Shown: positions 1 to 10,921 of the stretch, in pieces
Layout: each line of letters starts with the position of its first letter
How positions within the stretch are numbered: position 1 is the stretch's first letter
Source of the DNA: a virus
Taxonomy: Duplodnaviria; Heunggongvirae; Uroviricota; Caudoviricetes
Length of the DNA stretch: 17,506 nucleotides
IMG/VR virus record: IMGVR_UViG_3300029873_000373
Strand: one strand, 5' to 3'
Program-made: the position numbers and the translations under genes
The notes under the pieces: generated by a model
Seen by the model: the letters and a program-made list of their open reading frames with translations, nothing else
Databases searched by the model: none
Told to the model about the DNA's origin: nothing

Positions 1-1083
1 ATGAAAAAATTAACAGTGGCAATTTCTGCTGTAGCTGCATCAGTACTGATGGCGATGTCTGCTCAGGCAGCTGAAATTTATAATAAAGACAGTAACAAGC
101 TGGATCTGTACGGGAAAGTTAATGCTAAGCACTATTTCTCCTCTAATGATGCAGATGATGGTGATACTACTTATGCCCGTCTTGGCTTCAAAGGTGAAAC
201 CCAAATCAACGATCAACTGACTGGTTTCGGTCAGTGGGAATATGAATTCAAAGGCAACCGCGCTGAATCTCAAGGTTCCTCCAAAGATAAAACCCGTCTT
301 GCCTTCGCTGGCCTGAAATTCGGTGACTACGGCTCAATCGATTACGGCCGTAACTACGGTGTAGCATACGACATCGGTGCGTGGACTGACGTTCTGCCAG
401 AATTCGGTGGCGATACCTGGACCCAAACAGATGTGTTCATGACTGGTCGCACCACTGGTGTTGCAACTTATCGTAACAACGACTTCTTTGGTCTGGTTGA
501 TGGTCTGAACTTTGCTGCTCAGTATCAGGGTAAAAATGACCGCACTGACGTAACTGAAGCTAATGGTGATGGTTTCGGTTTCTCCACTACTTATGAGTAT
601 GAAGGATTCGGTGTAGGTGCAACCTATGCTAAATCTGACCGCACTAATAATCAGGTTATCTACGGTAACAACAGCCTGAATGCATCTGGTCAAAATGCTG
701 AAGTATGGGCAGCTGGTCTGAAATATGATGCGAACAACATCTATCTGGCTACCACCTATTCTGAAACCCAGAACATGACTGTTTTTGGTAATAACCATAT
801 TGCCAACAAAGCACAAAACTTCGAAGTAGTTGCACAATATCAGTTCGACTTCGGTCTGCGTCCGTCCGTTGCTTACCTGCAATCTAAAGGAAAAGACTTG
901 GGTGCGTGGGGTGATCAGGACCTGGTTGAATATATTGATGTAGGTGCAACCTATTACTTCAACAAAAATATGTCCACTTTTGTTGATTACAAAATCAACC
1001 TGATTGATAAGAGCGATTTCACGAAAGCATCTGGCGTTGCTACCGATGATATCGTTGCTGTAGGTATGGTTTACCAGTTCTAA
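1..1083 (+). CDS. nmpC: Outer-membrane general porin (NmpC/Lc/OmpD-like), phage-encoded moron
   Basis: 360-aa ORF; N-terminal signal peptide ending AQA-AEIY; typical 16-strand porin features ([14 protein letters not shown], C-terminal ...VGMVYQF ending in Phe); sits next to Q as in DLP12. Symbol is from recollection of the NmpC sequence, not a search. Confidence 0.88.
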
Positions 1084-1098
1084 TTTGATTACTAAAAG

Positions 1099-1154
1099 AT
1101 ATGTTGCGGGAGGCTTTGCCTCCCCAACATATAAGTGGCTCCCTCAAGCCACTT
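1099..1154. other. Two consecutive stem-loops between the convergent porin and Q genes (possible minus-strand late-leader terminator / qut region)
   Basis: ATATGTTGCGGGAGGC-TTT-GCCTCCCCAACATAT (1099-1132, one bulge) and AAGTGGCT-CCCTCA-AGCCACTT (1133-1154). On the minus strand the first is followed by CUUUUAG. Confidence 0.4.
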
Positions 1155-1219
1155 CCTTTAGGAGCACAACCTTGCTTCTAACTATATAAACCTTCTGTTA
1201 TATATTACCCTTTATTTTT

Positions 1220-1254
1220 GGGGGCGTTGCAACGCCCCATTTTTAATAATTTTT
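1220..1254 (+). terminator. Rho-independent terminator downstream of the porin gene
   Basis: Perfect GC-rich palindrome GGGGCGTTGCAACGCCCC (1221-1238) followed by ATTTTTAATAATTTTT on the plus strand. Confidence 0.6.
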
Positions 1255-1271
1255 AGTAAACAATTGGCATA

Positions 1272-1655
1272 TTAATTAGAGTTATTAACAACGATATCCA
1301 TCTCTAACCGGATATCTAATGCCATTAACATCCCTTCAATTATGCCCTCAGCCTTCTGTAACCTTTTCCCGATATAACCATCAGAGCAGCAATGCTTACC
1401 TGCCAGTGACATGAATGTCATACCGACTACATAATAATCTACTAATAAATCGTGCAAATCGCTGTTGTTCTTTTTCAGACGGGCCATGCACCCGCAAATA
1501 ATCATCGCGTCATCGTCACAACATTGCGGGCGAGATTTTACTTTTGAAGTAATTAATCCCTTAAAACCGGCGGCAATGGACGACCAGGTCACATCTTCAT
1601 GATTATTAGCCGCCCACGCTCCCCAGCGTTCGAGAACCATCTGAATATCACGCAT
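1272..1655 (-). CDS. Q: Late-gene antitermination protein Q (phage 21 / DLP12 QuuD-like)
   Basis: 127 aa from ATG at 1655 (SD GGAG 7 nt upstream); the track ORF begins at TTG 1670. Cys-rich zinc-binding region ([19 protein letters not shown]); sequence recalled as QuuD-like; position immediately upstream of the porin/late region. Confidence 0.85.
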
Positions 1656-1672
1656 CAACTTTCTCCACAAAA

Positions 1673-2668
1673 TCAGGACAGCACACCAATCGCCAGCGCG
1701 CGATCGATAAAACGAAATATCAGCTCCAGTTGGGAACCATACTTCTCTTCAAATGCCACGGTATCCGCATGTAGTTCGTCATGGTGTTTTCTGCACAAAG
1801 GCAACACAAAAAGGTCATGCGCTTTTGTACCCATTCCACCCTGACCATGACCAATCAGGTGATGAGGATCGTCGGCTGGCTTACCACAACATGCACACGG
1901 CTGCGTCTTAACCCAGCGCGTGTACTTTTCATTAACCCAGCGACGACGTTTGGGGCGTAACATAAAAGACTCCGGCGACTCCGGATCCACTTTCAGCGCC
2001 AGCACCTTTTTCGCCTTATCCCGGATGATGCTGGTGGCAGGAACCGAAGGCACAAGGTCACCTTCCCGGGTGACAGACGGCACAACAGGCTTCGGTAATC
2101 TCAGTGCCTTACGGGCTGCACTTTCCGGTAAGGCATCCGCCAGGTCATTACGAACCAGCCACCAGCACAGTTCCGGCATTGTCACAACGTGGCTGTCATC
2201 AAAACCGAGATCACGACGGACTACGGACAACACCCAGCGGGCACAGTTATCCGTTGCCATTGATTCCAGACGTTCCGTGAACTGATCGCGAAGCAGGTTA
2301 TCGCAGTGCCAGCACAGACGGATTGCGCCCGGCGCGTGTCGCATTGTGGTCATGTTCTCGCTGTGCCATCCGGAATGAGGCCACTGGCAGCCTTTTTCAC
2401 GAAGTAACCAGCTCTCAAGGCATTCCACGCCACCAGCACGACGGATCACCGCCTCATGGCGGAACACGGCCCGAACGGCAGGATCATCCGCCAGCGGTTG
2501 TGATGCTGCCGGAACGGCACCACTGGCAAAAGATGAATAACGTTCCGGCTCAGGCTCCAGCAGGACACGCCCCTGCATAAACAGGGGCATCAGCTCTGAA
2601 CCGGGTCTGAACAAGACGATCCCCATACGCGGGGCAATTTCAGGGGTCAGCAGTGCTCTCACGGTCAC
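1673..2668 (-). CDS. Nin-region phage protein with C-terminal DUF968-like Cys/His motif (putative HNH-like nuclease fold)
   Basis: 331-aa ORF; C-terminus [43 protein letters not shown]. Start uncertain: GTG 2668 lies inside the GAGG of the SD; GTG at 2662 has better spacing. Confidence 0.7.
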
Positions 2669-2972: not shown

Positions 2973-4369
2973 AATAAACGCTCCGTTTTACTGCCCGACA
3001 TGCGGTTATTGCTGTATCTGCGCGGATTGCCCGGCGTCATGGGTGTGGAAAGAACCCGGGCACTCTCCTGGTCCACAGGCAGAAAATGTCCGTTATGAAA
3101 ACGCCGGTAAATGGTCCCGAGTGTGCCATTACGCTGTTTCGTGATGTTGATTTCTGCTATGCCTCTGGCCTGTGTATCCGGGTTATACACCTCATCCCTG
3201 TAAAGCATCAGAATGATGTCGGCATCAGCCTCTATTTCCCCGGAGTTTTTCAGGTCTGAGTTCATGGGACGTTTATTGGGTCTGGATTCCACGCCTCGGG
3301 AGAGCTGGCTCAGAGCAATCAGCGGGAAACCGCCGGATTTTGCCAGGCTTTTAAGTCCCTTTGAGATTTCCCCCACAGCAAGGTCGTGACGCCCCGTGCT
3401 GCGGGTTTTAATCAGACCGAGGTAATCGACCACCACCAGCGCCGTTTCCGGGTGTTTCATCCGGTGGTGCTTCGTGGTTGCACATATCTCATCAATGGTC
3501 AGGTTTGCCTGATCCACCATCCAGATATTACGCCCCGTCATTCGTCCCACGCCCTGCGAGAAACGCGCCCAGTCTTCATCTTCAAAACGGGCAACAGACT
3601 TAAGACGGGATACCGGCATTCCACCGGCAGCAGACACCATACGTTCACCAATCTGGATGTTCGCCATCTCCATGGTGAACAGAAGCACGCCATGCCCCTG
3701 CTCAGTCACCTTGTCGATGATGTCCAGCGCAAGTTCGGTTTTCCCCATCGAAGGACGGGCGGCAATGAATACCAGGTCACCGGGCTCCATACCGCCCGTT
3801 TTTGCGTCCAGTTCATCAATACCGGTCATCAGCGCCCTGGATTTCTCCAGTCCCTGATTGCGGCATTCAACACGGTCGACCACTTCCGGAAGGACATCAT
3901 CAATGTGAACCGGCTGAATGACGCCCTTTCCGGTCGACAGTGAGGCCATCATGTTCTGCACATCCTTCAGGGCATCCTCGGCTGCTTCACAGGTATACGC
4001 ATCACGTAAATTCTGTAATGCTTCAGTCAGTGTTTTTTCTGCATCGCGCAGTGCGGCATTGCGCCGCAACGCTGCGACATAGTGCTCCAGTGAAGACTTC
4101 ACCCAGGTTTTGCGTCCGGTGTCGGTAATCACCGGGGCAAGTTCCGGCATCTCATTGCACAGCAGTACGGGGTCAATGACGCCGGATATGCGAGCCTGTC
4201 TGCAAATCCCCGCGTAAATATCCCGGTACTGACGCACAAAAAATACATCCGCCGGAAGTGTGGCCAGAATATCCATCACTTCCGGATCGGCCCCACGCAG
4301 AAAAAACGCACCGATGACAGCGCCTTCCAGGTCATCGTTACGCCATGCCGGGGTGTTCTGGCTGGTCAT
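2969..4369 (-). CDS. Replicative DNA helicase, DnaB family (phage-encoded)
   Basis: 466 aa; Walker A in DnaB context (FIAARPSMGKTELALD); N-terminal DnaB-like helical domain; start ATGA-overlaps the stop of the upstream loader gene. Confidence 0.9.
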   Translation of the reverse strand: MTSQNTPAWRNDDLEGAVIGAFFLRGADPEVMDILATLPADVFFVRQYRDIYAGICRQARISGVIDPVLLCNEMPELAPVITDTGRKTWVKSSLEHYVAALRRNAALRDAEKTLTEALQNLRDAYTCEAAEDALKDVQNMMASLSTGKGVIQPVHIDDVLPEVVDRVECRNQGLEKSRALMTGIDELDAKTGGMEPGDLVFIAARPSMGKTELALDIIDKVTEQGHGVLLFTMEMANIQIGERMVSAAGGMPVSRLKSVARFEDEDWARFSQGVGRMTGRNIWMVDQANLTIDEICATTKHHRMKHPETALVVVDYLGLIKTRSTGRHDLAVGEISKGLKSLAKSGGFPLIALSQLSRGVESRPNKRPMNSDLKNSGEIEADADIILMLYRDEVYNPDTQARGIAEINITKQRNGTLGTIYRRFHNGHFLPVDQESARVLSTPMTPGNPRRYSNNRMSGSKTERLF

Positions 4370-5265
4370 GCGGCAACACCTCCGATACGAGAACGGTAGC
4401 TGGGCCAGTTAAACGACAACCAGTTGCGCCCGCCATCGGTGATCCTGTCGGCAATCCGGGGACTGATGAACGCCCACAATTCTTCCGGTGAAAGGTTGCT
4501 GATCAGGATAGTTGGCAAAATACCCTCATACCGGGCATTGATAATTTCCTGCAAAATGGCCATTTCAGCCGCACTGCCAAACTGAACGCCGACTTCGTCG
4601 ACAATCAGCAAATCCAGTGACGCATAATGCTCAATGACGTCATCCGCTGTTTTTTCACTGTCATTCCGCCAGCAGTTTTTCACAGCCCGGGTAAGGCGCA
4701 TCACGTCGGTGATCTCCACACTGGCCAGATAGTTACGGATGATGTGTTTTGCCATTGATACCGCCAGATGATTTTTCCCGGTACCGCAACTGCCGGTCAT
4801 AACAAGACTGGTACCGTTCTCCAGCATATCTGGCCAGTTCTCCGCATAGCGGCGACAGGCCGCAAGATTTCTGGCTGCGTCAGGATTAACCTCCAGATAA
4901 TTATCAAACTCGCAGTCCCGAAAACGCAGAGCAATTCCGGCGTTATCAGTCAGTTCTTCCGCCTTGAGGGACGACAGTTCCATGGTCAAATCACTGGCCT
5001 CAGCGATCAAGCAGTCAGGGCAGCATGAAATTTTTTCTCTGTCCTCGCCATTACGATCGATCCACACCAGTATATGCGTACGATATTTACCGTGTTTTTC
5101 GCAATATCCGCGACCTTCACGCATCAGGCAGGAACGATAAGGCCATGGCTTTTCGCCCTTCTGAGCAAATGCAATCTCTGCCCGTAACTCATCCATTTCT
5201 GCCCGTAACTCATCCATTCGCGCCTGTAGTCTTGTTTGTTTCTCACGTTGGTCAATCGTCATCAT
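4366..5265 (-). CDS. DnaC-like helicase loader / IstB-type AAA+ ATPase
   Basis: Walker A (TGSCGTGKNHLAVS) and Walker B (LLIVDEVG). The track starts at GTG 5274, but ATG 5265 has better SD spacing (GAGGTG-N6-ATG). Contains a 21-bp perfect tandem duplication (MDELRAE x2). Confidence 0.85.
   Translation of the reverse strand: MMTIDQREKQTRLQARMDELRAEMDELRAEIAFAQKGEKPWPYRSCLMREGRGYCEKHGKYRTHILVWIDRNGEDREKISCCPDCLIAEASDLTMELSSLKAEELTDNAGIALRFRDCEFDNYLEVNPDAARNLAACRRYAENWPDMLENGTSLVMTGSCGTGKNHLAVSMAKHIIRNYLASVEITDVMRLTRAVKNCWRNDSEKTADDVIEHYASLDLLIVDEVGVQFGSAAEMAILQEIINARYEGILPTILISNLSPEELWAFISPRIADRITDGGRNWLSFNWPSYRSRIGGVAA
5177..5218. repeat. Perfect 21-bp tandem duplication (TCTGCCCGTAACTCATCCATT x2) inside the DnaC-like gene
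   Basis: Two identical adjacent 21-mers at 5177-5197 and 5198-5218; in frame (7-aa repeat MDELRAE). Confidence 0.9.
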
Positions 5266-5275
5266 CGCTGTCACC

Positions 5276-6268
5276 TCAGAATGTCAATTTGTTACTGGAT
5301 TTACCGAATTTGTCAGACATGGCTCCCAGGCCAGCCAGGACATCGACCTGTCGCTGTCGCCCACCTCCGTGAGCGGCTGGCTGTTGCCAGTAATCTTCGA
5401 AGTGACGATCGGGTCCAAAGAACGTCGCAGCCTGCTTCACGAACTGTGTGCCGGTATTTCCTGTAGCACGTACCCAGGCGGCATACCGCTTCACGCCATC
5501 AAGCATGGTCTCCGGTTTTATTCCCTCCCTGATACGGGCTTTCCAGGCTTTGAAGGCTGCTGACTTGGAATTGCCACCAGCACGTTTGGGATATTCCTGC
5601 CAGGCCTGTTCAAATTCCGGTGAATATTCCTGTCGGGCAGAACGCGCTGGCGCAGACGCGTCAGCGGATGCATCAATAGTGTTTTTAGTCTCCGTTGTAA
5701 TCTCTGTAGTAATCTCTGTATTTGTATCAACATTCGGCGTATCCCCTGTTCCGTTATGACGTCGGGGGGTGTTCCGTTTTAACGTAATAGCTGTATCGCT
5801 GATTGCATTATTGCTGTTACTTTCTGGCGAAACAGAAGAAGGTGTGGTGATGGCCGCAATTGCCTGTGGGTTGATCCCGACAAACAAAATATTGCTGCAT
5901 TTCACCCCATCGAGCATTTCCACCGTGCGTAAATCCAGAGTAATAAACCCTGCATCGCGCAGACGCTTCAGCGCATCTGCGGTTTCCCTTTTCCCGAAAC
6001 CAAACTGCTCAGCAAACGCCTGGTAGCTTCTTTGCAGTTTGTCGCCCTGAAAACGCTTGCGATATCCCAGCAACGCTCCGGTGTGCTCATCCCTGACCTC
6101 TGTCGGGCGGTACCAGTAAACGATCTCTGAAAGCAGAGCGATAGCCGTCGCATCCGGACGCCCACTGGGTAGTCGAATATATTTCCACCAGTTCGCAGGT
6201 GTAACATTGCCGGAAATATTAATTTGACCAATAGCCATAACTTCCGGTGTGGGGGCGTAACGGCTCAT
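5276..6268 (-). CDS. Phage replication initiator (lambda O-like replisome organiser)
   Basis: 330 aa; strong SD AAGGAGGT before ATG 6268; N-terminal winged-helix-like domain; central low-complexity linker (TEITTEITTE) encoded by iteron-like DNA repeats; immediately upstream of the DnaC-like and DnaB-like genes. Confidence 0.65.
   Translation of the reverse strand: MSRYAPTPEVMAIGQINISGNVTPANWWKYIRLPSGRPDATAIALLSEIVYWYRPTEVRDEHTGALLGYRKRFQGDKLQRSYQAFAEQFGFGKRETADALKRLRDAGFITLDLRTVEMLDGVKCSNILFVGINPQAIAAITTPSSVSPESNSNNAISDTAITLKRNTPRRHNGTGDTPNVDTNTEITTEITTETKNTIDASADASAPARSARQEYSPEFEQAWQEYPKRAGGNSKSAAFKAWKARIREGIKPETMLDGVKRYAAWVRATGNTGTQFVKQAATFFGPDRHFEDYWQQPAAHGGGRQRQVDVLAGLGAMSDKFGKSSNKLTF
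5697..5720. repeat. Iteron-like 12-bp tandem direct repeat (GTAATCTCTGTA x2) inside the initiator gene; candidate origin element
   Basis: Two perfect 12-mers at 5697-5708 and 5709-5720 with related flanking partial copies; located in the inter-domain linker of the O-like gene, as lambda ori is in O. Confidence 0.45.
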
Positions 6269-6785: not shown

Positions 6786-6976
6786 GGACGCACCTCCGCC
6801 GTAGTTACGTATTTAACCGGGCTACCTTTCATTGAGATGGTTTCACACATCTCTGCCGCTTTCAGTTCCGCTGTTTTTCTGGATTTATAGCGACGGTGCC
6901 AGACAGATACATCCGTGCGAACTGATACATCGTTTCTGTATTCCGTAGTGGAGATGATGATTTCGTAACTAATCAT
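6782..6976 (-). CDS. Hypothetical small phage protein (64 aa)
   Basis: ATG 6976 preceded by AAGGAGGT; ATGA overlap with the Rha-like gene stop. Confidence 0.45.
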   Translation of the reverse strand: MISYEIIISTTEYRNDVSVRTDVSVWHRRYKSRKTAELKAAEMCETISMKGSPVKYVTTAEVRP

Positions 6977-7833
6977 GGGCGAACCTCCTTGTCAGAACCA
7001 TTCAGCCTGGAATCAACAAGTGCAGCGCCAAAAACAGCATCACCAACACGGTCGTACAGTTTGCTAGCCAGCGGAGATTCAACGGCCTTAAGCATTGGAT
7101 AAAGCTGGCTTGTCCAGATTTGATGGATTTCACGCAAATGCAGGTATACGCCTCTGGCGTTTCGTGCGACAGCTGACATATCAGACGCATCGGCACCTGA
7201 TAAACTCTTCTCCATCAGGTTAAAGGCGTTGATGTATGCCTCTTTGAACCGGGCAGCACGTTTACCAGTGAAGCCCATGGCAAGAAACGCAAAACCGTCG
7301 CGGGTGATTTGGTAACAAGGGAGCTTGCGTGTACCACCGTTCGGTTGATTTACCGAAATCGATGTCTCCGCAAAATTGCGGGCACAAAACTCAGGGGAAC
7401 AATCCAGAGTGCGGATCTTTTTCAGCACATCGTCATGACGCTTGGAGAAGAAGTTGGCAACAGCCAAAGAAGTGGTAACGGCCTGGCCGTTGTCAATGGT
7501 GATTTCAGGTTGAGTGAGGGCTGGGATCGTAGCCATGATGGCAGCCTCCGTTGACAGTGAAAAACTTCCACCACCGGAAACGCCAATTTCACTGGTGGTG
7601 AACTGGACGGGGTTGGCGTAACCGGCGTCAACGGAGACCGGCGCACCTTTCGGTGCCCCCGCCCAGCCCACCATAATCTGGATGTGAGCAAATGCGGACG
7701 ATAAAAAAGACGCTGGCGCGTCATACATCGCCGTTGACAATTTCAGGACGCCAATCCCGGCACCCGCTTTATAAGGTGCGGAGACAGTGTAACGTCCCGG
7801 AATTGCAGAATCAATATGCTGGTGGCGGATCAT
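6973..7833 (-). CDS. Rha-family phage regulatory protein with a ~99-aa N-terminal module of unknown function
   Basis: Rha-like core ITIDNGQAVTTSLAVANFFSKRHDDVLKKI ... TRDGFAFLAMGFTGKRAARFKEAYINAFN; ATG 7833 has SD GGGAGGTG. An in-frame internal ATG at 7536 with SD GGAGG lies exactly at the module/Rha junction. Confidence 0.7.
   Translation of the reverse strand: MIRHQHIDSAIPGRYTVSAPYKAGAGIGVLKLSTAMYDAPASFLSSAFAHIQIMVGWAGAPKGAPVSVDAGYANPVQFTTSEIGVSGGGSFSLSTEAAIMATIPALTQPEITIDNGQAVTTSLAVANFFSKRHDDVLKKIRTLDCSPEFCARNFAETSISVNQPNGGTRKLPCYQITRDGFAFLAMGFTGKRAARFKEAYINAFNLMEKSLSGADASDMSAVARNARGVYLHLREIHQIWTSQLYPMLKAVESPLASKLYDRVGDAVFGAALVDSRLNGSDKEVRP
7537..7833. repeat. Copy 1 of a ~300-bp duplicated coding module (N-terminal domain of the first Rha paralog)
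   Basis: Near-identical DNA to 8193-8492, e.g. shared CCCGCTTTATAAGGTGCGGAGACAGTGTAACGTCCCG and GACGATAAAAAAGACGCTGGCGCGTCATA. Confidence 0.85.
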
Positions 7834-8492
7834 AGGTGCACCTCCCGTTGATTACGACGGAACGCGGAGTGACCCTGGACGGTTTCAGCCTCATGGAATG
7901 CTTCAATACAGCTCTCGTAGTACCGCATTGTGCGCAGACTTAACCCAAGCTGAAGCATCATCAGACCATCAAGGGTGATGTAATAACCACGCAGGGAGTC
8001 ACCGTAGATGTGATAAGTACCCGGTATGAAATTGCGGGTAAAAAACCCGCGTGAGCAGTTCAGATACTCGATTTTGTCAACGATGTTCTGGTGCATGCGC
8101 TTGAAATGGCAGGCAACATGCAGGGAGAAAATAACGGCCTTGCCGTTGACGACTTCGATTTTTAGGAATGGGGAAGTTAGGACAGTAGCCATGATGGCAG
8201 CCTCCGTATGCAATGGATAACTTCCACCACCGGAGCTGCGAAACTCATGGGTGGTGAACTGAACAGGGTTCGCAGTACCGGCGCATACGGAAACCGGCGA
8301 GCCTTTCGGCTCCCCTGCCCAGCCCACCATAATTCTGGCGTGCGTGAGCGCGGACGATAAAAAAGACGCTGGCGCGTCATATATCGCCGTATGCAATTCC
8401 GGGCTGCGACCCCCGGCACCCGCTTTATAAGGTGCGGAGACAGTGTAACGTCCCGAAATTGCAGAATCAATATTTGGTCTTGAAATGATCAT
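7830..8492 (-). CDS. Rha-family regulatory protein paralog (divergent Rha domain) carrying the same N-terminal module
   Basis: N-terminal 100 aa about 75% identical to the adjacent gene; Rha-like IEVVNGKAVIFSLHVACHFKRMHQNIVDKI. ATG 8492 has no SD; internal ATG 8192 has GGAGG and may be the true start. Confidence 0.6.
   Translation of the reverse strand: MIISRPNIDSAISGRYTVSAPYKAGAGGRSPELHTAIYDAPASFLSSALTHARIMVGWAGEPKGSPVSVCAGTANPVQFTTHEFRSSGGGSYPLHTEAAIMATVLTSPFLKIEVVNGKAVIFSLHVACHFKRMHQNIVDKIEYLNCSRGFFTRNFIPGTYHIYGDSLRGYYITLDGLMMLQLGLSLRTMRYYESCIEAFHEAETVQGHSAFRRNQREVHL
8193..8492. repeat. Copy 2 of the ~300-bp duplicated coding module
   Basis: Same as above; differences are substitutions only, many at third codon positions of the minus-strand frame. 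Confidence 0.85.
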
Positions 8493-8601: not shown

Positions 8602-9308
8602 CACCGCTGCCAACCAATAACCTGAAATAACCCCATTTTCGGGTGATACCAGCGAGTCCCTCGCGGTTCTGCTTCCTCCATAATCCGATAAAAAGCAGCC
8701 ATAAACGGTTCCACAGCAACAATTGCGCGACGTGACAACAATCCGTCCGGCGTCATGAACTCATGGGTGTCTGTAGGAATCTGATAGGCGTTCACCAGAT
8801 TGCGGCATTTATCATCTGACAAACCGGTTTTTGCTTTCAGTTGGCGATATCCGGCATAGCCCTCACGAATAGTGCCCTTTTTAATTTGCTCGACTGTTTC
8901 AGCAACGTGGCTGACTTTTTCTTCCACCTGAGTGATCCGTTTCTGTTGGCGAACGGCTTCAAGAGCCATCGCGGCAACCATTTCGATTTCGCTCATTGGC
9001 TTACGGATCTGTTCTTCCAGTTCGCGCCAGCGATCTACCAGGCGAGCTGTGAATTCAGGACAGAGCTGTGCGACGACAATGATGCTGTCGCGCTTACCTC
9101 GTTCACCTTCGAATACATACGCGCTAGAAAATCGGCGAGGCCCAAGTGATTGTTTATTCTCAATTTCCACAGTCTGTGGAAATTGGATGATTCCCTTTTT
9201 AGCCAGTGTTTCAATAGTTCTCTTAACACTATCTGGTCGGCTTCCCACCAGCTCTGCGATCTCAACGCTGGTCATGGATGCTTTGCCGTTAAAAATTGCG
9301 GTGTTCAT
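8601..9308 (-). CDS. Rha-family phage regulatory protein (antirepressor-like)
   Basis: 235 aa; N-terminal MTSVEIAELVGSRPDSVKRTIETLAKKGII fits the Rha-domain pattern; coiled-coil-like middle; SD AGGAGA before ATG 9308. Confidence 0.7.
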   Translation of the reverse strand: MNTAIFNGKASMTSVEIAELVGSRPDSVKRTIETLAKKGIIQFPQTVEIENKQSLGPRRFSSAYVFEGERGKRDSIIVVAQLCPEFTARLVDRWRELEEQIRKPMSEIEMVAAMALEAVRQQKRITQVEEKVSHVAETVEQIKKGTIREGYAGYRQLKAKTGLSDDKCRNLVNAYQIPTDTHEFMTPDGLLSRRAIVAVEPFMAAFYRIMEEAEPRGTRWYHPKMGLFQVIGWQR

Positions 9309-9532
9309 TGTTGGTCTCCTGTGGGCTTGTCATCTTCTGTATTCGCTAGACTTGGGTGTGTATATGGAATGCTCGGATCCAGATGACAAAGAATGGCAAC
9401 ATCCTCCGGAACACCTCGCGTTTTCCACTTTCCAACACCTTGACTGCCACGAGGCCTTCCTTTCTTTGGGAACCTGCGACCAATAGCGGCATTGGTTTTA
9501 AATTGAATTTTTAATATTTCATAAAGGGTCAT
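9305..9532 (-). CDS. Candidate first ORF of the early-right operon (75 aa, basic, no recognisable HTH)
   Basis: ATG 9532 lies about 30 nt downstream of the predicted PR start; ATGA overlap with the Rha gene; weak SD; low-complexity basic sequence, so it may be non-coding leader. Confidence 0.3.
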   Translation of the reverse strand: MTLYEILKIQFKTNAAIGRRFPKKGRPRGSQGVGKWKTRGVPEDVAILCHLDPSIPYTHPSLANTEDDKPTGDQQ

Positions 9533-9549: not shown

Positions 9550-9622
9550 GATACTTTGTTATCCAACGATGTTAACCATAGGAACCCAAAGTATCAAGAA
9601 ATTCTGTTACTTTAGTATCAAC
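9550..9622. promoter_or_regulatory. Rightward-operator/promoter-like region (divergent PR/PRM analogue) with repeated operator motif
   Basis: Motif CAAAGTATCAA at 9587-9597, TTTAGTATCAAC at 9611-9622 and inverted GATACTTTG at 9550-9558. Candidate minus-strand promoter: -35 TTGATA (rc of 9592-9597), 17-bp spacer, -10 TAACAT (rc of 9569-9574). Confidence 0.5.
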
Positions 9623-9643: not shown

Positions 9644-10300
9644 ATGAAGTCTTTAGGTGAACGTCTCATCAACGCACGGCAAAAAGCTGGGTTAACACAA
9701 GATGCGTTGGCTAAAAAAGCTGGGGTCACCAGAGTTGCAATAAGTAAAGCCGAGCAAGGCCTTACAAAAAGTTTCAACGGTGACACCCTTTTTAAAGTTG
9801 CAGCTGCACTGCGGTGTTCACCGCAGTGGCTTCAGAACGGAGATGAAAAAGATAAGCATTGGGAAAATAATGTTAAGAGCTGCCCACAGAGAGACACAGC
9901 ACACTCTTACCCTGTAATTAACTGGGTTCAGGCAGGATTATTCGCAACTTCTGGTGATGACTACAACATGTATGATCAGGATAATTGGAGGCATTCTGTA
10001 AAATACGCTGGTGAGAGGGGGTTCTGGCTGGAAGTGCACGGAGACTCAATGACTTCGCCCGTAGGAATAACATTTCCTGAAGGAATGTCGATCCTTGTCA
10101 ACCCAGATAAAGAAGTTTTTTCAGGGTGTTACGTCATCGCCAGAAAAAAATCCACCAATGAAGCAACATTCAAAAAATATATTTCTGACATGGGAAAGGC
10201 GTTTCTAAAGCCCCTTAATCCACAATATCCAATCATAGAAATGGACAATGATTGCGAAATAGTAGGTGTTGTGGTTGATGCCAGATGGGATATTTTCTGA
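9644..10300 (+). CDS. cI: CI-like prophage repressor (XRE-family HTH plus LexA/S24 peptidase-like C-terminal domain)
   Basis: 218 aa; SD GAGGAGAAG before ATG 9644; HTH LINARQKAGLTQDALAKKAGVTRVAISKAEQG; S24 catalytic context GDSM ... ATFKKY; divergent from the early-right operon. Confidence 0.9.
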   Translation: MKSLGERLINARQKAGLTQDALAKKAGVTRVAISKAEQGLTKSFNGDTLFKVAAALRCSPQWLQNGDEKDKHWENNVKSCPQRDTAHSYPVINWVQAGLFATSGDDYNMYDQDNWRHSVKYAGERGFWLEVHGDSMTSPVGITFPEGMSILVNPDKEVFSGCYVIARKKSTNEATFKKYISDMGKAFLKPLNPQYPIIEMDNDCEIVGVVVDARWDIF

Positions 10301-10305
10301 CCAGA

Positions 10306-10333
10306 CACAAAACACAAAACACAAAACACAAAA
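10306..10333. repeat. Perfect heptamer tandem repeat (CACAAAA)x4
   Basis: Four exact 7-bp units directly after the cI stop codon and before the leftward operator motif. Confidence 0.9.
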
Positions 10334-10338
10334 AGAAA

Positions 10339-10386
10339 CCAAAGTATCAAAAATCACTTGCCACGACTTGATACCTTAGTTACCAT
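10339..10386 (+). promoter_or_regulatory. Leftward-operator/promoter-like region (PL/OL analogue)
   Basis: Same operator motif as the rightward region: CCAAAGTATCAA (10339-10350) and inverted TTGATACCTTAG (10368-10379). Candidate promoter -35 TTGCCA (10358-10363), 17-bp spacer, -10 TACCAT (10381-10386). Confidence 0.45.
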
Positions 10387-10417
10387 AAAACAAAGTTCGT
10401 AACTGAGGTATCATCTC

Positions 10418-10921
10418 ATGATCAATAAAGCTACAACTCTTGACTGTCTCGAAGAACTGAAAAACCTCGGCAGCCTCATTACACTAATAGCAAAAGCAAC
10501 ACCTGATGCTACGCTCTCTAGCGATATAGAGTCATGCGCAGGACTGGCATGGGATATGACAAATAGCATATCCAGAAAGCTATCGTCAGCAATGCTTTTA
10601 CAGAACAAAAATTCTGCAATCAACAACCGTCTTCGCACCCAACGCGAAGCCTGCGGCTTAACAACCGCCGAACTCGCCAGGCTGCTCGATCTCGATGAAG
10701 AAATCATCATTCAGTGGGAGAGCGGAGAGTATGAACCAACCATCAGTATGCTTATCCCACTGGCAAATATTCTTGGCTGCGATCCGATGTGGCTGTTAAC
10801 TGGCGAGGTTACTCCTCCGGAGCAACCAAAAAGTGAGGAGCAGCAACACCATGACGCATCTCAACAAGTTTGCCCCTTATCTCGCGAAGCTCTTCTGCGG
10901 AAGAACCAATACCAATGGTGA
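10418..10921 (+). CDS. XRE-family HTH protein with ~70-aa N-terminal extension, in the position lambda N occupies
   Basis: 167 aa; SD TGAGGT before ATG 10418; HTH LRTQREACGLTTAELARLLDLDEEIIIQWESGEYEPTISMLIPLANILGCDPMWLLTGE; no arginine-rich N-like motif. Confidence 0.6.
   Translation: MINKATTLDCLEELKNLGSLITLIAKATPDATLSSDIESCAGLAWDMTNSISRKLSSAMLLQNKNSAINNRLRTQREACGLTTAELARLLDLDEEIIIQWESGEYEPTISMLIPLANILGCDPMWLLTGEVTPPEQPKSEEQQHHDASQQVCPLSREALLRKNQYQW

Follow-up and report, generated by a model that had tools for sequence, protein, structure and literature searches.

In the immunity region of phage lambda the repressor gene is followed, in the same direction of transcription, by rexA, rexB and tImm and then by three leftward operators and their promoter (OL/PL), a second three-operator cluster with a divergent promoter lies on the other side of cI, and the OR-OL distance is 2.3-2.4 kb. 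Bacterial VNTR loci, such as those used for E. coli MLVA typing, consist of perfect head-to-tail short units, differ in copy number between near-identical sequences, gain and lose copies recurrently and spread variant units within the array. Repeats of a related kind act as phase-variable promoter elements in contingency loci, as in Neisseria promoters, with their homopolymer tracts, and in Haemophilus hif, where a (TA)n tract sits between -35 and -10. Here we describe a heptamer repeat in the immunity region of a 17,506-nucleotide stretch of viral DNA (Caudoviricetes; IMG/VR record IMGVR_UViG_3300029873_000373; hereafter the window). This region shares with lambda the same-direction order of repressor gene, three leftward operators and promoter, as well as the second three-operator cluster with a divergent promoter beyond cI, but it lacks rex genes and any recognisable intrinsic terminator, places only 34 nt between the stop codon and the first operator core (28 of them occupied by the array), spans about 0.75 kb from OR to OL, and carries operators of the GATAC-N4-GTATC type, unlike those of lambda. 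The repeat behaves like the VNTR loci in all of the respects listed above, although its array is very short (1-4 copies) and slowly changing. It also resembles the contingency-locus repeats in being prone to slippage and in occupying a regulatory intergenic stretch, but it lies neither between -35 and -10 hexamers, nor inside an ORF, nor between an operator and its promoter, its copies are too few for fast switching, and no on/off geometry can be defined for it. We found no description of a repeat of this kind next to an operator in a prophage immunity region in the searchable literature, and nothing on the heptamer repeat or on the operators of phiP27.

Direct reading of the bases shows that positions 10306-10333 are the unit CACAAAA repeated four times with zero mismatches. 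TRF reports the same tract (10305-10333, period 7, 4.1 copies, 100% matches, score 58), and in 200 shuffles of the window that preserved its dinucleotides the 28-mer had no match at up to three mismatches. Chance cannot account for the array, which is real, and the perfect fourfold repeat reported in the first-pass annotation of this DNA is confirmed. The surrounding features are listed below, with the strand given where it applies.

9305-9532, minus strand: divergent ORF in the cro position, 75 aa, no Pfam match
9550-9619: OR-like control region with three operator copies, a, b and c
9550-9563: operator a, one mismatch to the pattern (repeat analysis)
9582-9595 and 9606-9619: operators b and c (repeat analysis and pattern search)
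9597-9569, minus strand: PR-like promoter TTGATA-17 nt-TAACAT, within the OR-like region
9644-10300, plus strand: gene of a cI-type, LexA-family repressor, 218 aa, stop codon TGA at 10298-10300 (HTH_3, PF01381, 1.6e-14; Peptidase_S24, PF00717, 3.2e-22)
10306-10333: perfect tandem array (CACAAAA)x4, a variable heptamer microsatellite (TRF, shuffles, copy number in relatives)
10335-10348: operator d, GAAACCAAAGTATC, 14-bp pseudo-palindrome, the promoter-distal OL site, at -58 to -45
10358-10386, plus strand: predicted PL-like sigma-70 promoter TTGCCA-17 nt-TACCAT (promoter prediction; kept in relatives)
10370-10383: operator e, GATACCTTAGTTAC, overlapping the spacer and -10 hexamer of the PL-like promoter (repeat analysis and pattern search)
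10399-10412: operator f, GTAACTGAGGTATC, 3' of the predicted start, where it overlaps the next gene's Shine-Dalgarno sequence
10418-10921, plus strand: first gene of the leftward operon, 167 aa, C-terminal XRE-type HTH (PF01381, 3.8e-11; annotated in relatives)

The array begins 5 nt past the cI stop codon and ends 1 nt short of the first OL-like operator core (10335), which bears out both the distance and the placement between repressor gene and leftward operator that had been claimed for it, with the lambda-like layout intact. It thereby lies within the 3' untranslated region of the cI message, and at -87 to -60 relative to the predicted leftward promoter if +1 is set at 10393, a numbering that puts the -35 hexamer at -35 to -30. 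No operator, -35 or -10 hexamer or plausible ORF overlaps it. The array does not itself supply extra operators, there being no match to GWWMC-N3R-GTWWC within 10306-10333, and a coding or phase-variable ORF over it was likewise rejected, the only candidates being minus-strand frames with TTG or GTG starts, antisense to cI and with low-complexity translations (the frames crossing the array shift between alleles, the unit being 7 nt). We consider it likely that the array is a VNTR made by slippage in a weakly constrained spacer, with a copy number close to neutral and no role beyond that of a spacer.

Our sequence analysis places the window within a phiP27-like lambdoid prophage. A 1.7-kb query matched phage phiP27 at 94.6% identity over 86% of its length and several Stx1a/Stx2a phages at about 85% identity, and prophages in many E. 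coli chromosomes are 98-99% identical; in strain MLI109 the prophage ends with xis and int, adjoining yecN/cmoA. The HTH_3 and Peptidase_S24 domains of the 9644-10300 product indicate a cI/LexA-type cleavable repressor, and its counterparts in relatives are annotated as 'LexA family protein' or 'phage repressor protein CI'. Repeat analysis and pattern searches define the operator type as a 14-bp pseudo-palindrome, GATAC-N4-GTATC, and GWWMC-NNNR-GTWWC gives nine strand-matches in the window against 0.30 expected, all of them at 9582-9595, 9606-9619, 10335-10348, 10370-10383 and 10399-10412. With operator a included, three operator-like sites lie on each side of cI, and a perfect palindrome, GATACTTTAGTATC, occupies the operator d position in the relative L194. 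The description of cI followed by OL/PL in the same transcription direction, as in lambda, is right. Behind the 75-aa divergent ORF follow Rha/Ash-type regulators, replication genes and a Q antiterminator.

Several further features of the prophage were recorded alongside this map. The first leftward gene (10418-10921) measures 504 nt in the window, against 417 nt for its version in phiP27 and in several E. coli prophages and 651 nt in the O145 group, with its start region kept among the relatives L001, L003 and L006; these length differences point to a mosaic junction inside or just after the gene, and not at the repeat. Within the early-right operon, two C4 antisense RNAs (RF01695, 81-83 bits; 7591-7678 and 8247-8334, minus strand) and two isrK RNAs (RF01394, 59-62 bits; 7703-7779 and 8359-8435, minus strand) form tandem pairs inside or upstream of the adjacent Ash/Rha-type genes (7830-8492 and 6973-7833, minus strand), and look like a duplicated c4-ant module of the P1/P7 ImmI kind. 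A perfect 21-bp x2 tandem repeat, TCTGCCCGTAACTCATCCATT, at 5177-5218 and a 12-bp x2.7 repeat, TCTCTGTAGTAA, at 5689-5720 fall inside or next to two ORFs of the replication region on the minus strand (4366-5274 and 5276-6268) and are possible origin iterons. At its left end, next to Q, the window carries an ORF on the plus strand (1-1083) and one on the minus strand (1272-1670), which differ from the DUF262/HEPN-like nuclease pair found in MLI109 beside the same cytosine methyltransferase (window 1-1700 compared with L002 1-1643); this end looks like a variable slot for cargo or defence genes.

A comparison of copy number across relatives, which had been proposed earlier, revealed 1, 2, 3 or 4 copies of the tract among about 280 related loci, so that the number is not invariant. 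Two copies occur in roughly 77% of these loci, three in a few and four in the window only. For the E. coli census a 331-bp query centred on the array was run against 5,426 complete genomes, of which 195 matched; none of the 195 has four copies and one has three (O111:H21 strain 15A). The best match spans 324 bp (three copies), the remaining top matches span 317 bp (two copies) and none spans 331 bp. Length classes were taken from an evenly spread sample of 60 of the 195 genome matches, each class being checked by alignment.

324 bp span: 3 copies, 1 of 60
317 bp span: 2 copies, 45 of 60
316 bp span: 2 copies plus a 1-nt deletion elsewhere, 1 of 60
310 bp span: 1 copy, 8 of 60
311 bp span: 1 copy plus one extra A, 2 of 60
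313-314 bp span: divergent, no repeat, 3 of 60

A search with exact flanks and a variable gap yielded 53 IMG/VR loci and 20 metagenome contigs, which were pooled with annotated loci to give the following alleles.

ACACAAAACACAAAA: 2 copies, 51 pooled loci
ACTCAAAACACAAAA: 2 copies with a SNP, 11 pooled loci
3 copies: 6 pooled loci
ACACAAAA: 1 copy, 4 pooled loci
ATACAAAA: 1 copy, T variant, 3 pooled loci
ACACAAAAA: 1 copy plus an extra A, 2 pooled loci
2 copies plus an extra A: 1 pooled locus
ATACAAAATACAAAA: 2 copies, T variant, 1 pooled locus
AACGAAAA: no repeat, 2 pooled loci
4 copies: 1 pooled locus, the window itself

A scan for the bare repeat added a seventh three-copy allele. The four-copy allele was found nowhere else in the 195 E. 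coli genomes, IMG/VR, the metagenome contigs or the phage collection, and the GTDB representative genomes gave no match to the locus at all. That the four-copy allele recurs in no other of the roughly 280 related loci would fit an assembly or sequencing error over a true allele of two or three copies; we regard this as extremely unlikely, however, because a 28-bp array is far below read length, no error mode is known for such arrays, and three-copy alleles occur independently in isolates and in metagenomes, so that expansion past two copies is real.

The alleles with one, two, three and four copies align in register as whole units, and the C-to-T variant of the unit was found both as one copy and as two identical copies, as unit duplication or loss predicts. 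Fitch parsimony on a neighbour-joining tree of 77 flanks requires at least seven copy-number changes, a count that prophage recombination can inflate. One-copy alleles belong to no fewer than two distinct clades, and a single 1,250-bp flank haplotype is found with three copies in four loci and with two copies in one. The proneness to slipped-strand copy-number change that had been suggested from the sequence alone is thus borne out, and the array appears to be an ordinary simple-sequence repeat of the slippage type (a VNTR). The window is nested inside a large two-copy clade, and its nearest neighbour, MLI109, has two copies and differs at 0.12-0.15% of flank sites; the four-copy state of the window is best read as a recent expansion from the common two-copy state, unique so far. 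The mutability of a contingency locus was not seen in the 1-4 copies of these relatives: large groups of near-identical prophages, many of them from ST131, are uniformly two-copy, which indicates that change is slow and that the array is no fast phase-variation switch. The dominance of two copies (about 77%) could be due to stabilising selection and not to common descent, such as that of the many ST131 genomes.

The comparison of relatives also suggests that the spacer is weakly constrained and that the architecture does not require it. Within-unit SNPs occur in relatives (ACTC, ATAC, AAAG) and the A-run of the spacer shows 1-nt changes in some of them. The repeat is wholly absent from the Stx-phage relatives at 85% identity, and in L194, whose cI is 86% identical, the stop codon lies 4 nt from operator d, leaving almost no spacer. 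Operator cores, -35, -10 and Shine-Dalgarno sequences are conserved in repeat-bearing and repeat-less relatives alike. Indels in a few sequences distorted the per-site diversity of the OL/PL segment, and that comparison served here only for its list of alleles.

These same alleles bear on whether a protein specific for tandem 7-bp units could bind the heptads. Such a protein is the omega repressor of inc18 plasmids, which binds WATCACW heptads, and in the register AAACACA the unit fits this consensus at six of seven positions; the array also lies upstream of a promoter. The omega system, however, belongs to Gram-positive plasmids, a scan of eight neighbouring proteins turned up no ribbon-helix-helix protein and no other candidate binder, one-copy and no-repeat alleles are common, and units carry SNPs. 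Such a role is barely credible.

The first-pass annotation had also suggested that the periodic A-tracts could confer intrinsic curvature, and repeated A4-5 tracts upstream of a promoter do recall curved DNA of the kinetoplast type and upstream curved activating sequences. The period is 7 bp, however, and not 10-11 bp as in phased A-tract arrays, which sets successive tracts two thirds of a helical turn apart, so that they fall out of helical phase and each set of three copies has no net bend: with 10.5 bp per turn, equal bends add up vectorially to 1, 1, 0, 1, 1, 0 for one to six copies. In a dinucleotide wedge model, the overall bend in the native context is 4-24 degrees and cycles with a period of three copies, and in a straight context 4, 6 or 9 copies give 9.5-13 degrees, compared with 61-97 degrees for A-tracts of similar length phased at 10-11 bp. 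A curved A-tract array was accordingly rejected, the phasor sum and the wedge model showing no cumulative bend.

The absence of curvature weighs on the possibility that the PL-like promoter is modulated by the A-rich array, whether through DNA shape or because the alpha C-terminal domain of RNA polymerase contacts the array as a distal UP-like element, with copy number tuning early-left transcription. There is a precedent in lambda PL, which IHF and a distant A+T-rich element stimulate from upstream, and the array, with its A4-5 tracts, lies directly upstream of the promoter region (-87 to -60). This is nevertheless upstream of the canonical UP element position (-40 to -60), which is taken by operator d. 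Moreover, the modelled bend does not accumulate (4-24 degrees against the 61-97 degrees of phased tracts), each added copy turns the upstream tracts by 240 degrees so that no face of the helix is kept, and relatives that have no repeat retain the same promoter and operators. We therefore hold promoter modulation to be quite unlikely.

It had further been claimed that copy-number change would alter operator spacing. This does not apply to operator-operator or operator-promoter distances within OL, since the array lies outside that cluster, but it does hold for the distance between OR and OL. The distance from operator b to operator d is 732, 739, 746 and 753 bp for one to four copies, and each copy also lengthens the cI 3' untranslated region. 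As cI is 657 nt in all annotated relatives, the array is the sole length-variable element between OR and OL. Together with three operators per end, arranged as in lambda, this would allow the 7-bp steps to set the helical phase of an OR-OL loop and, through it, cooperative repression and lysogen stability, making the array a contingency locus for induction. The energetics leave some room for such an effect: absorbing 120 degrees of twist in a loop of this size (about 740 bp) is estimated to cost 0.6-0.9 kT and would change the looping probability at most about two-fold. Looping by this repressor is hypothetical, however, and supercoiling and protein flexibility would weaken so small a predicted effect still further. 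All three helical phases are represented among natural alleles (one and four copies being in phase) with no compensating indels, which gives no sign of a phase constraint, the nearly spacer-less L194 likewise speaks against an effect on looping or PL activity, and the low copy numbers and invariant large clonal groups imply slow switching. A looping function appears very improbable.

At the RNA level, the first-pass annotation had stated that only the repeat separates cI from the operator, and indeed no terminator-like site or rex-like gene precedes the next promoter. No intrinsic terminator was found on the plus strand over 9644-10921, and a search of 10290-10420 at the Rfam gathering threshold returned no family. 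On the minus strand, a candidate terminator made up of a TTTTGTG run after a weak, AT-rich, long-loop stem was rejected, as it is not favoured in the predicted fold. In contrast to the window, cI relatives at 40-51% identity (L196-L208) have a GC hairpin and T-run terminator directly past the stop codon. The main rival to the spacer reading is that the spacer with its array is the rut region of a Rho-dependent terminator, which would replace the intrinsic terminator of these distant relatives, end PRM-cI transcripts before the leftward operon and terminate more strongly as copies are added.

The composition of the spacer RNA is compatible with this proposal. The 78 nt past the cI stop codon contain 21 C and 6 G, in the top 0.2% of windows on this strand, and they have the features of a rut-type region, an untranslated and unstructured stretch of some 70-80 nt in which C far outnumbers G, the pairing probability being 0.03. 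In the predicted fold of 10285-10440 (z-score -3.45) the array is entirely unpaired, and both the C/G ratio and the unpairedness increase with copy number. A C-rich, G-poor spacer RNA that follows cI in place of an intrinsic terminator may thus have a role in termination, and one that is stronger in longer arrays. YC dinucleotides, however, are the preferred motif of the Rho primary site, and the unit CACAAAA contains none, so that the YC count in the 78-nt window drops as copies rise. One-copy alleles and a nearly spacer-less relative exist, and repressor bound at OL could by itself block read-through. In addition, the ribosome-binding site of the next gene would already be hidden in read-through RNA by a hairpin within 10369-10413. 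We give Rho-dependent termination a small chance, and any regulatory effect of copy number is probably small.

The hairpin just mentioned lies 3' of the array in the predicted fold, where 10369-10383 pairs with 10399-10413 over 15 bp through operators e and f, which are inverted copies of each other. One arm is predicted to cover the Shine-Dalgarno sequence of the gene at 10418, in the cI read-through RNA only; the predicted PL start (+1 at about 10393) falls in the hairpin loop and the PL transcript would not include the 5' arm. The hairpin may provide promoter-specific translation, or may be a mere by-product of operator symmetry.

Returning to the array as a slippage-made spacer, replication slippage would both make and remodel the tract, in the stretch from the cI stop codon to operator d. 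The alleles are probably close to neutral; in the DNA the tract would be no more than spacer, and in the cI message an unstructured, G-poor part of the 3' untranslated region. The sole geometric effect of a change in copy number would be a displacement of OL with respect to OR, 7 bp for each copy. That copy number serves instead as a slow tuning knob for lysogeny, through Rho-dependent termination, the phase of an OR-OL loop or both, is a long shot. Were it true, E. coli lineages with one to four copies would show heritable differences in the level of repressor, in spontaneous induction or in read-through into the leftward operon.

The phiP27-like prophage family is widespread: it occurs in 195 of the 5,426 complete E. 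coli genomes, including many from ST131, and also in relatives of some Stx phages. For this family, the analysis provides a clean map of the immunity region, with three operators per end and neither rex genes nor a terminator, and the main practical value of the array would be as a small typing marker. If, against the balance of the present evidence, copy number did alter repressor termination or looping, the array would offer a rare example of prophage stability tuned by a microsatellite, with four natural alleles.
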